Shown here: in pieces, positions 36,699-39,600 of the stretch
Numbering within the stretch: the first letter of the stretch is position 1
Layout: every line of letters begins with the position of its first letter
Origin: Escherichia coli O157:H7
GTDB lineage: Bacteria > Pseudomonadota > Gammaproteobacteria > Enterobacterales > Enterobacteriaceae
Direction: 5' to 3' (one strand)
Assembly (NCBI RefSeq): GCF_013167455.1
Contig: NZ_CP038328.1
DNA: 64,000 nt
Program-made: the position numbers

Positions 36699-39600
36699 TA
36701 ATGAGGGACGTATTTGTATTAGTCGCGACTTGATCTGACACATGGCCTTGAAAGGTTGAGAGTTACCGGTTTTGATATGAGTGTCGAATCCTTATCCAAA
36801 ACAAGAGGTAACTCTCATGCTTCATACTGCCAATCCCGTCATCAAACACAAAGCCGGTTTGCTCAATCTGGCTGAAGAACTCAGCAACGTATCAAAAGCC
36901 TGTAAAATCATGGGCGTTTCGCGTGATACGTTTTATCGTTACCGCGAACTGGTCGCTGAAGGCGGTGTGGATGCGCAGATTAATCGTAGTCGCCGCGCTC
37001 CTAACCTTAAGAACCGTACCGATGAGGCAACTGAACAGGCTGTTGTTGATTACGCCGTCGCTTTCCCGACACATGGTCAGCACCGGGCCAGCAACGAACT
37101 GCGTAAACAGGGGGTTTTTATCTCCGACAGTGGTGTCCGTTCTGTCTGGTTACTCCATAACCTTGAGAATCTCAAAAGACGATACTGAACAAATTTTATC
37201 AGGTGACGTTCCGTAAAAAGTTGTATGGAGTTCTCGATGCAGTCGGCGCGACTATCAGTACCCCCGCTGAACCCTGGACTATCGGGCCGCCGTACTGGGG
37301 CATGTCACCCTGGCGTGCCGCTGGTTTTCCGCTAATGGTTTATTTCCTCTTTCTTTCCCGGCAAGAATTTATTTTAATCCGGAAGGATTATTTATTTTCA
37401 GATAGGGACTCACATTAAACACGTAACATTTTAATTAATGCATGGCTGAATATGTATTACACAATGTCAGATATCGTAAAAGACCAGTGCAATTCTATGT
37501 AAACTCTCTGACTGTTCATTTTATTTGTTGTTTCAGGGTCGGAACTCACCCTCAATAAACAACTGAATACGAGTAGATATTCATCGTCTGAGCTATATGG
37601 CTTTACACAATAGCCGACATGTCTTTTCTCAGTCAGGAATTTTACTTTTCCTCACTACGAAGTTGACGACTTCGATATGGGATAGACTCTTAATTCAAGC
37701 AATTACTCTGCACAAGCATCAGGCAATCCAGCTCCAATATTTGTTATAAAATAATGCGTAACATTAATTTCACCAACAAAAAAAGGTTTACACCATCCCC
37801 TTGCCCTGGTATCTTACCATATTTACACCACACTTTTTTTGTATCTGGATCATTCTTTGATACGATTTTCGCCACTTGTTCCCTGGCCCTCACTGTCAAT
37901 GTTTTCTTAAACCTCCCCCCATCATCATTTGTTAGGGAAAAATAAGAAAAAAATAATCATCTTCTACATTTGTGTATATTGATATATCCACCGCTACGTG
38001 CGGAAAAAAATCTGGGAGCCATGTAAAAACTCCATCATTTTCTGGTATTGCCATATAGTTTATGTAATGTTTACTTACAAGAGATTCATCTTTGTATAAA
38101 TAAAGATAAGTAATTACGCATAAAACAACAATGATTATAATAGCAATAATAAATATTATCATCTTTGATAGATTACTTGAGATAGCCAGCATCTTGTAAA
38201 GCCTTTATCGTTTCTTTATGCTCTGGATTAATATAATCACTACATCTATCTGAGCAATCTGTTGTTGATGGACATGTCAACCCATGGTCATTTACAGCCA
38301 AGTCTTTTTTATTATCTTCAATCATTTCAGAATGGGATAGCTTTACTTTTCTGCCGTACATACCGAACAGATTTAACCCGTAATCTCTAATCTCTTTTTC
38401 ATAACCCAGCCCTTTCGCCGATCGGCTAACACCAGCGTCATTTAATTTAGACACTCGACAAAATGCCATACAATGGAAAAATTGATCAGTCCCACCTAAA
38501 TTTAATCTCTTCATATCTTCATAAGTATCAGATAATATATCCCATGCTCTTTGATGGTTTAGTTGATCTTTTCTTCTTATTAGCGCTACATCTGCGGGAC
38601 TTAACCCTAATGGATCAATACCATTCACCGGATTCAGCGGATACGCATACAGACTCCATCCCCCCTCCAGCCCTATCGGGTCCTGAGTGATATACCGCCC
38701 CTGCAACGGATCGTAGTACCGGTTCCGGTTGTAGTACAGCCCCGACTCCTTATCATACTGCTGCCCCGGCAGCCGGTACGGCTGGTGCAGGTGATGCGGG
38801 TTCTCCTCATTCAGCTGGTTGCCCCATTCATCATACTCCCCGCTCCACGCCGTATTGCCGTCTTCGCTGATGAGCGCCAGCGGCAGGCCCCGGTGGTCGC
38901 AGTGGTAAAGATGAACTTTTCTCGCCGGTGTGTATTCCGGCTCCACCTGTCTGGCCAGTTGCTCCACCGTCAGCCCGCACTGCGCAAGCCACGCCCGGCT
39001 TTCACTGCTCACGCGGTCTGCCCGGATTTCTTCCTCCAGTCTGTCCAGCAGCCGCACCAGTTCAGCCGGAAATACCACACCGTGCCCGTCCTCGCTCCCT
39101 TCCTGCTGCAGCTTCTCCGCCAGGCTGCGGCGCTGCGCTTTCTCCCGCTCACCGTTGTCTGTTTCGATGCGGATGAGCGGCGCGAAGCTTCCCGGCTCGT
39201 ATACCGTCTGGATACGCGTGGTGTCGGTCTGTACCGTCGTCAGCCGGTCGCCGTCCCACCCGTACCACGTCACCTCCGGTTTCCGCGACAGCGACATCCA
39301 TCCCGTCAGGTCACGCCCGCGACGCCACACCCGTTTCCCCGTCCGGCGGCCCAGCGGGTCGTAGAGGTAGCGGCTCTCGACCAGTGGCTCGCCATGCTGT
39401 ATCCGCGTGTAGAACACCAGGCGGTGCTGGCTGTCGTAGTGGTAGTGGTGGGTCCGCTCGTCGTCCGTCCGTATCACACCCGCCGGGATGCGGTCCGTCT
39501 TCTCCGTCAGCCTGCCGTATTCATCGTGTCGGTAGACATAGTGCGCATCCTCCGCGATGCGGTTATCCGGCCACGCCGTGAGCGTGCTGTCCGGGTGTAG

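Follow-up and report, generated by a model that had tools for sequence, protein, structure and literature searches.

Rhs islands of Escherichia coli are known to turn over by C-terminal displacement, a route that leaves orphan rhs tips downstream of full-length rhs genes (PMC2935791). One well-studied island of this kind carries, in strain K-12 MG1655, the genes rhsD, ybbC, ylbH (pseudogene), ybbD (pseudogene), ylbI (pseudogene b4632, 96 bp), ylbG and selU, in this order. Here, we analyze a stretch of 64,000 nucleotides from E. coli O157:H7 (assembly GCF_013167455.1, contig NZ_CP038328.1; hereafter, the window), which is the O157:H7 RhsD island with its surroundings, the island being placed between ybbP (42799-45213, minus strand) and mnmH/selU (35607-36701, plus strand). 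A short rhs fragment on the minus strand of this island is the already annotated K-12 pseudogene ylbI, and an instance of ordinary genome decay. Very probably, it is what is left, without function, of a second, tandem rhs gene that was lost by illegitimate deletion into an insertion sequence (IS) of the IS481 family.

The O157:H7 fragment agrees with K-12 ylbI in both locus and sequence. Positions 37100-37960 of the window are 99.8% identical to K-12, the 96-bp K-12 feature has the same ATT and the same end, and no difference is found in the stub itself; over the longer interval 38881-36700 the identity to the K-12 region is 99.1%. The two islands differ upstream, where that of O157 is simpler and lacks the rhsD tip/ybbC module, and in ybbD, which carries a second frameshift in O157. 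The NCBI annotation of an identical strain lists five features, i.e., mnmH, a partial ylbG, a 96-bp partial "hypothetical protein" at 37241-37336, an 86-amino-acid (aa) protein and a 1398-aa RHS protein. All three pseudogenes, namely the ylbI stub, ybbD with its frameshifts and the insertion-sequence remnant ylbG, are annotated and, as such, already known.

The stub (37242-37336, minus strand) corresponds to the initial 95 nucleotides (nt), or 32 codons, of an rhs gene; ATT stands where ATG would be expected, and the GC content is 64%, like that of the rhs core. The assignment draws on translation, blastn, the K-12 annotation, a partial pseudogene called by the Prokaryotic Genome Annotation Pipeline, and codon and GC analysis. 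Six intact rhs 5' ends match it at 79-82% nucleotide identity (E values between 1e-14 and 1e-27). The match to the 5' end of the resident rhs gene (79.4% identity over 97 nt, blastn) has an E value of ~1e-18, and the similarity is therefore not due to chance. Across the 32 codons, 20 of 96 bases differ between the two, 16 of them at third positions, which amounts to 13 synonymous and 4 non-synonymous codon differences; ATG is replaced by ATT. The ATT occupies 37336-37334 in the window and is found likewise in K-12 and in two diverged strains, and none of these has a canonical start codon. An earlier inspection of the same DNA (the sequence-only reading) had described an rhs N-terminus on the minus strand with ATT for ATG and many synonymous differences from the intact rhs gene 5 kb away; the description holds, with the start moved from 37337 to 37336 and the end of rhs homology from 37205 to 37242. 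What it had missed is that the fragment is the annotated ylbI, cut by fusion to an IS481-family remnant.

The frame that starts at 37336 runs for 45 codons to a stop at 37201-37199, and the last 13 codons before the stop are antisense IS DNA. This read-through tail (37199-37241, minus strand), SRTPYNFLRNVT followed by the stop, belongs to transposase DNA of the IS481 family and is not of rhs origin. Since rhs homology ends after codon 32, the stub contains no DUF6531 domain, YD-repeat core, PxxxxDPxGL motif or toxin tip.

On the other side of the junction, the plus strand carries two pieces of an IS481-family element. The larger one, at 36714-37181, comprises the left inverted repeat, the leader and the N-terminal helix-turn-helix part of the transposase, and matches, at 96% identity, an element that is intact on a plasmid of E. 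albertii; the surviving ylbG reading frame corresponds to this helix-turn-helix part according to both Pfam and NCBIfam. The smaller piece (37173-37241) is interior DNA of the same IS family, matching positions ~930-998 of ~1,203 at 81% identity, and is fused at 37241/37242 to codon 32 of ylbI. Compared with the intact E. albertii element, which is ~1.2 kb long and bounded by the inverted repeats TGTATTAG and CTAATACA, the copy in the window has an internal deletion of ~463 bp between short imperfect repeats and has lost its right end, so that only the left repeat and the N-terminal 112 of 284 transposase profile positions are left. With neither the catalytic region nor the right inverted repeat, the ylbG element is immobile.

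The junction itself is exact. IS481-family homology ends at 37241, at an interior transposase position, and rhs homology ends precisely at 37242, with a microhomology of two to seven bases at the join (either CA or, 3 nt beyond it, the heptamer CAGTCGG). Both partners are convergent and both are cut inside their coding regions, and this pattern is the hallmark of an illegitimate deletion, through which the rhs gene body was lost together with the right part of the IS. The same junction and the same ends occur in ~2,750 of 5,426 complete E. coli genomes, i.e., about half of them, mostly at 99% identity or more, and the 1.6 kb around the stub are 100% identical to many E. coli O157:H7 chromosomes.

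Two side observations concern the IS remnant. A terminator-like plus-strand hairpin, GGCATGTCACCCTGGCGTGCC, with a T-rich tail lies at 37299-37319, downstream of the ylbG remnant and inside ylbI on the opposite strand; the scan gave two terminator-like sites where 0.9 were expected, and the hairpin may be a chance occurrence. On the minus strand, 36643-36814 gives a sub-threshold match to the Rfam family psRNA2 (34.4 bits against a gathering score of 65, E = 2e-6), which spans the 3' end of mnmH, the left inverted repeat of the IS481-family element and its leader, and this family may be modelled on IS481-type ends.

To place the stub among rhs genes, its 5' end was compared with those of K-12 rhsA, rhsB, rhsC and rhsD, of the rhs gene in the window, and of an rhs gene in the tRNA-Asn island of strain E92. 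Between the stub and each of these intact 5' ends there are 16-25 differences in 96 positions, while recognised rhs subfamilies differ among themselves at 14-21. The changes M1I, T13P and G29V occur in ylbI alone and have the look of decay that followed inactivation, and Leu27 (CTG ATA) is common to another rhs type, which is present at the RhsH locus and at 73 metagenome loci. With the sequence QYGGPIVQ as in the RhsD and E92 types and VLI as in an RhsG/H-like type, ylbI is a mosaic. The ribosome-binding leader in front of the stub (37337-37358, minus strand), GAAAGAAAGAGGAAATAAACC, is homologous to the leaders of rhs genes that lie downstream of other toxin/immunity modules, and unrelated to that of the resident rhs gene. 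These comparisons support the view, put forward in the sequence-only reading, that the stub would stem from an rhs lineage other than that of the resident gene, and not from a recent local duplication; the divergence is at subfamily level and the leader is unrelated to that of the neighbour.

The best model for the origin of ylbI is provided by the RhsH locus next to yafV. In strain 100416, this locus contains a 40-nt rhs start with an intact ATG and the leader AAAGAAAAGGAATAAACC, placed directly after the immunity gene dsORF-h1 (L018, 6019-6059), and the stub is followed immediately by an ISAs1 element, left end first, which lies at the edge of the island. At the same position, strain WS4437A-1 has a 4-kb frameshifted second rhs gene with a leader like that of ylbI, followed by further genes and the same terminal ISAs1 (L019, 9140-13134). 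Removal of 7.3 kb from the structure in WS4437A-1 gives that in 100416, with the end of the deletion falling exactly on the terminus of ISAs1. Metagenome contigs add rhs genes with this type of leader after other toxin/immunity-like open reading frames (ORFs). Tandem distal rhs genes thus exist, and can be lost against an IS in a manner that leaves 5' stubs. A separate case of truncation is seen in strain ampC_0069, where ISEc1 has inserted only 17 nt into the rhsE gene that lies downstream of vgrG (L003, 4836-4852).

By this analogy, we propose that the ybbP-mnmH island once had a second rhs gene, arranged in tandem and located downstream of the resident rhs/ybbD pair, and that a 366-bp inter-module spacer would have carried the leader of this second gene. 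An illegitimate deletion at short microhomology would then have joined codon 32 to the interior of the convergent IS481-family element, taking with it the rest of the second rhs gene and the right end of the IS, after which the stub would have drifted by the changes ATG to ATT, T13P and G29V. The homology, the exact junction, the condition of the IS, the reconstruction of ybbD and the occurrence of this junction in about half of complete E. coli genomes are shown directly, while we infer the former presence of a full-length gene after the stub, the order of events and the lack of function. The 64% GC content, which is the composition of the rhs core, and the concentration of changes at third positions argue that the stub diverged as part of a working gene. 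The dispensability of the region in K-12, where insertions are found after the first stop of ybbD and a landing pad was placed in the ybbD-ylbG interval, is a further point for the account as a whole. If this account is correct, the modest gain is a concrete history, in which an additional rhs gene, in tandem and from a lineage without any intact copy in the searches made, belonged to the island, its loss by deletion into the IS481-family element would predate the divergence of A, B1 and E-type strains, and the RhsH locus supplies a matching before-and-after pair.

Several observations weigh against this account. None of the genomes examined contains an intact gene that continues from ylbI, and one and the same junction occurs in all of the ~2,750 E. 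coli genomes that have the spacer; as no intact gene of the ylbI lineage was found, the tandem ancestor is reconstructed by analogy. A 26-mer common to ylbI and its closest relative gave, among 100,044 GTDB species representatives, only one mis-binned K-12-like contig. A pattern scan of metagenomes yielded no copy of the leader followed by ATG, and a second such scan yielded no intact gene with the ylbI codon signature. The two parts of the IS differ in their identity to the reference copy, 81% for the interior piece against 96% for the left part, and two different IS copies may have been involved. With respect to the lack of function, AUU can act as a weak start codon in E. coli, infC being the classic case. 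Furthermore, a chromatin immunoprecipitation-on-chip peak for FNR in K-12 is labelled "ylbI" and listed without a consensus site, and genomic systematic evolution of ligands by exponential enrichment (SELEX) in K-12 revealed binding of the RpoD holoenzyme between ybbD and ylbI in vitro (PMC3946193), which together make some transcription possible.

These last points lead to the alternative that the stub or the spacer is functional, either as a small protein (the AUU-initiated 45-codon frame or a 34-codon frame from Met12), as a small RNA, or as a promoter directed antisense into ylbG. We regard this as improbable. The ATT is preceded, at a distance of 9 nt, by a good Shine-Dalgarno sequence; the RpoD site, TCGTCA-19-TAAAAT (37639-37669, minus strand; K-12 genomic SELEX, in vitro only, PMC3946193), lies in the spacer, the FNR peak bears the name of the stub, and the sequence is near-invariant across ~2,700 genomes. 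Such invariance, however, is ordinary within-species identity. The 32 rhs residues are too few for a PAAR-like or DUF6531 domain, and what follows them is antisense IS. Non-productive binding of RNA polymerase and of nucleoid proteins is common in AT-rich DNA acquired by horizontal transfer. Moreover, K-12 tolerates both transposon insertions in the tail of ybbD and the use of the ybbD-ylbG interval as an engineered neutral landing pad, and the history of a lost rhs gene would explain why this interval works as such.

The AT-rich DNA next to the stub bears on the same question. GC content is 37.0% in 37380-37930 compared with 52.6% in the whole window, and no ORF of at least 60 aa lies wholly inside, as the sequence-only reading had noted; a 63-aa plus-strand ORF at 37754-37945, antisense to ybbD, overlaps the edge. 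The stretch has two parts, of which 37703-37931 is the 3' part of the frameshifted ybbD, and 37337-37702 is the spacer between the ybbD stop and ylbI (366 bp, 35.5% GC), which was subjected to ORF, Rfam, terminator and tblastx scans. The spacer has no ORF longer than 50 aa, and in the only homologous copy found, indels interrupt the ORFs of 38 aa and 32 aa. That copy corresponds to a 183-bp segment (37385-37567, minus strand) which is 86% identical to a variant of the RhsE locus in strain ampC_0069, where it lies between an immunity-like ORF and ISAs1; the RhsE-locus counterpart occurs in ~82 records. Copies of the segment differ by 1-nt indels, which indicates that it is non-coding and tells against a small protein, and it looks like inter-module DNA common to Rhs islands.

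A search for orphan toxin/immunity modules by tblastx and blastn against six Rhs loci gave no protein-level match for 37337-37705. The suggestion that the AT-rich stretch may hold decayed modules of this kind is right in part, for 37703-37931, the 3' part of the dead ybbD gene, with the reservation that ybbD goes with the resident rhs tip and does not constitute an extra orphan module; the other 366 bp are without protein remnant. A small RNA, also proposed there, finds no support. With Rfam 15 at a permissive threshold, nothing in 37200-37931 scored below E ~0.8, the weak matches being to eukaryotic long non-coding RNA and transfer-messenger RNA models, and no terminator-like site is present in the spacer. 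Folding of the spacer gave z-scores of -2.5 for the minus strand, a point in favour of function, and -1.0. Overall, nothing convincing emerged from Rfam, promoter/terminator scans and folding, and a small RNA is improbable. In sum, no function is indicated for stub or spacer.

The recurrence of similar stubs invites a second alternative, namely that stub and leader are part of a mobile rhs cassette, in which a retained 5' homology patch serves the gain and loss of rhs-immunity units by recombination; this we consider quite improbable. In its favour, two different islands and metagenomic contigs repeat the arrangement of an immunity gene followed by an rhs 5' stub or by a second rhs gene with a similar leader, and the ybbP-mnmH site is a hotspot with alternative cargo. 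However, the stub offers only 95 nt at ~80% identity to any intact rhs gene, and 95 nt at this level of identity is a poor substrate for RecA-dependent recombination. Among the matches listed from the 5,426 genomes, no variant was seen in which a unit had been added or removed by recombination at ylbI, and the stub ends at an illegitimate junction rather than a defined site. A related and very improbable idea extends to islands in general, i.e., that rhs 5' stubs with a common GGAATAAACC-type leader at distal island edges are either retained homology patches or preferred IS targets for unit gain and loss; if true, Rhs islands would be recombination-driven cassette arrays at both ends, beyond C-terminal displacement. 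Targeting of rhs 5' ends by ISAs1 was examined separately and rejected, as only two of the six left ends examined lie directly against an rhs start and no common target sequence was seen.

There is hardly any room for the alternative that the stub arose recently from the 5' end of the neighbouring rhs gene, by partial duplication or by gene conversion. The two sequences have the same orientation, lie 5 kb apart, and give the same amino acid in 28 of 32 aligned codons. However, 20 differences in 96 bases is about the level that separates subfamilies, and this divergence effectively refutes the idea. The leaders are similar only in a short ribosome-binding-site stretch just before the start, Leu27 (CTG ATA) belongs to a different rhs type, and among the intact 5' ends compared the nearest is that of E92, in another island, with 16 differences in 96 positions. 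A distant blastn search of 5,426 E. coli genomes, directed at those without the locus, found no intact relative of ylbI above ~87% outside the locus; this search reported only the best place per record, and thus a single place for the O157 genome. When metagenomes were scanned for the Leu27 signature running into the conserved GVAC codons, 73 loci were recovered, all of the TRKGLDIVQ type and 22-25 of 96 bases away from ylbI. Finally, a sequencing or assembly artefact, which the sequence-only reading had named as a ground for dismissing the fragment, is excluded by the presence of the identical sequence and junction in thousands of independently finished genomes (~2,750), including that of K-12 MG1655.

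The genes upstream of the stub are the resident rhs gene and ybbD. The full-length rhs gene (38173-42369, minus strand) encodes an RHS element core protein of 1398 aa, with a core 93.6% identical to that of K-12 rhsD and a DUF6531 domain that begins at residue 46. Its C-terminal tip is the one found as orphan ylbH in K-12 (38173-38881 of the window; K-12 record L002, 5952-6660). O157 is without the K-12 rhsD tip and ybbC, and the ylbH-type tip belongs to a gene that is complete and delivery-competent, while ybbD, the presumed immunity gene for this tip, has been reduced by two frameshifts to an 86-aa remnant.

The ybbD pseudogene (37703-38192, minus strand) is immunity-like and carries PF26610 (YbbD_head), and two of its poly-T tracts are one base short. 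NCBI annotates the truncated ORF at 37932-38192 (minus strand) as an 86-aa hypothetical protein, whereas in K-12 ybbD is annotated as a 491-bp pseudogene that extends past the 86-aa ORF. Joining the frames across the poly-T tract yields a 163-aa protein. Intact 163-aa YbbD homologues, which are encoded directly after rhs at the same locus in other E. coli, carry PF26610 and match NCBIfam NF011298, and align over their full length at 91%, 70% and 50% identity; the frame-corrected translation of 38192-37703 is 91% identical end to end to homologue P0001 (NF011298, 367 bits), which places it in the YbbD family. Compared with strains with intact ybbD, both the window and K-12 are one T short at 37947-37953, and the window alone also at 37778-37784 (plus-strand coordinates). 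With both tracts at full length the product is 163 aa, with only the second tract short it is 149 aa (351 member sequences), in K-12 the first tract is short, and in O157 both are. These length differences could reflect slippage-prone tracts or, in some assemblies, homopolymer sequencing errors. Relative to two strains with intact ybbD, 37724-37954 has 11 substitutions and two poly-T length differences in ~230 bp, against only four substitutions in 600 bp for 37100-37700, which covers the spacer, ylbI and the IS remnant.

The role of ybbD as an immunity gene against the adjacent rhs tip is putative and assigned from its position. Published transposon-directed insertion-site sequencing of K-12 found the 86-aa truncated ORF free of insertions and past the essentiality threshold, with many insertions after the first stop of ybbD. 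This suggests that the 86-aa remnant is needed in K-12, and a remnant that still protects against the ylbH tip would fit.

With respect to the island as a whole, 36709-42791 is an insertion relative to empty-site strains, in which mnmH and ybbP are separated by 240 bp of REP-like sequence, and the edge on the mnmH side is the left end of the IS. The ybbP-mnmH site is a hotspot for cargo, and its content varies among strains: some have an empty site, others a dinQ-like type I toxin gene, an extended Hcp (TssD) alongside four DUF2931 genes, or an Rhs island. Two E. coli variants with shorter matches were considered as ancestral states and rejected, because they reflect secondary IS3 insertions.

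The RhsH locus is a close parallel to ylbI, as both consist of an immunity gene, a short spacer, a leader of the GGAATAAACC type, an rhs start and then an IS at the island edge. They differ in that the RhsH stub has 40 nt, keeps its ATG and ends at the ISAs1 terminus, which fits IS-adjacent deletion, whereas that of ylbI has 95 nt, has ATT, and ends in the interior of an IS481-family element; their 5' sequences differ at 24 of 96 positions. The ylbG part of the junction resembles the intact IS481-family element in its left inverted repeat and the helix-turn-helix part of its transposase, at 96% identity, and departs from it by the absent catalytic region and right repeat and the internal deletion of ~463 bp. 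With the orphan tips produced by C-terminal displacement (PMC2935791), ylbI has in common that it is an rhs fragment in a GC-poor region downstream of an rhs gene of full length, as well as a by-product of Rhs-island turnover. The displaced orphans, however, are 3' fragments in which a toxin tip and an immunity gene follow the core's end, while ylbI is a 5' fragment without core motif, toxin or immunity gene; a term search of that article (Jackson et al. 2009, PMC2935791) returned no mention of 5' rhs stubs. As ordinary decay in a well-studied island, the case matters little overall. Its origin would lie in deletion against an IS, where that of the displaced orphans lies in displacement, and to this known route of Rhs turnover it adds the loss of whole distal rhs genes beside insertion sequences.

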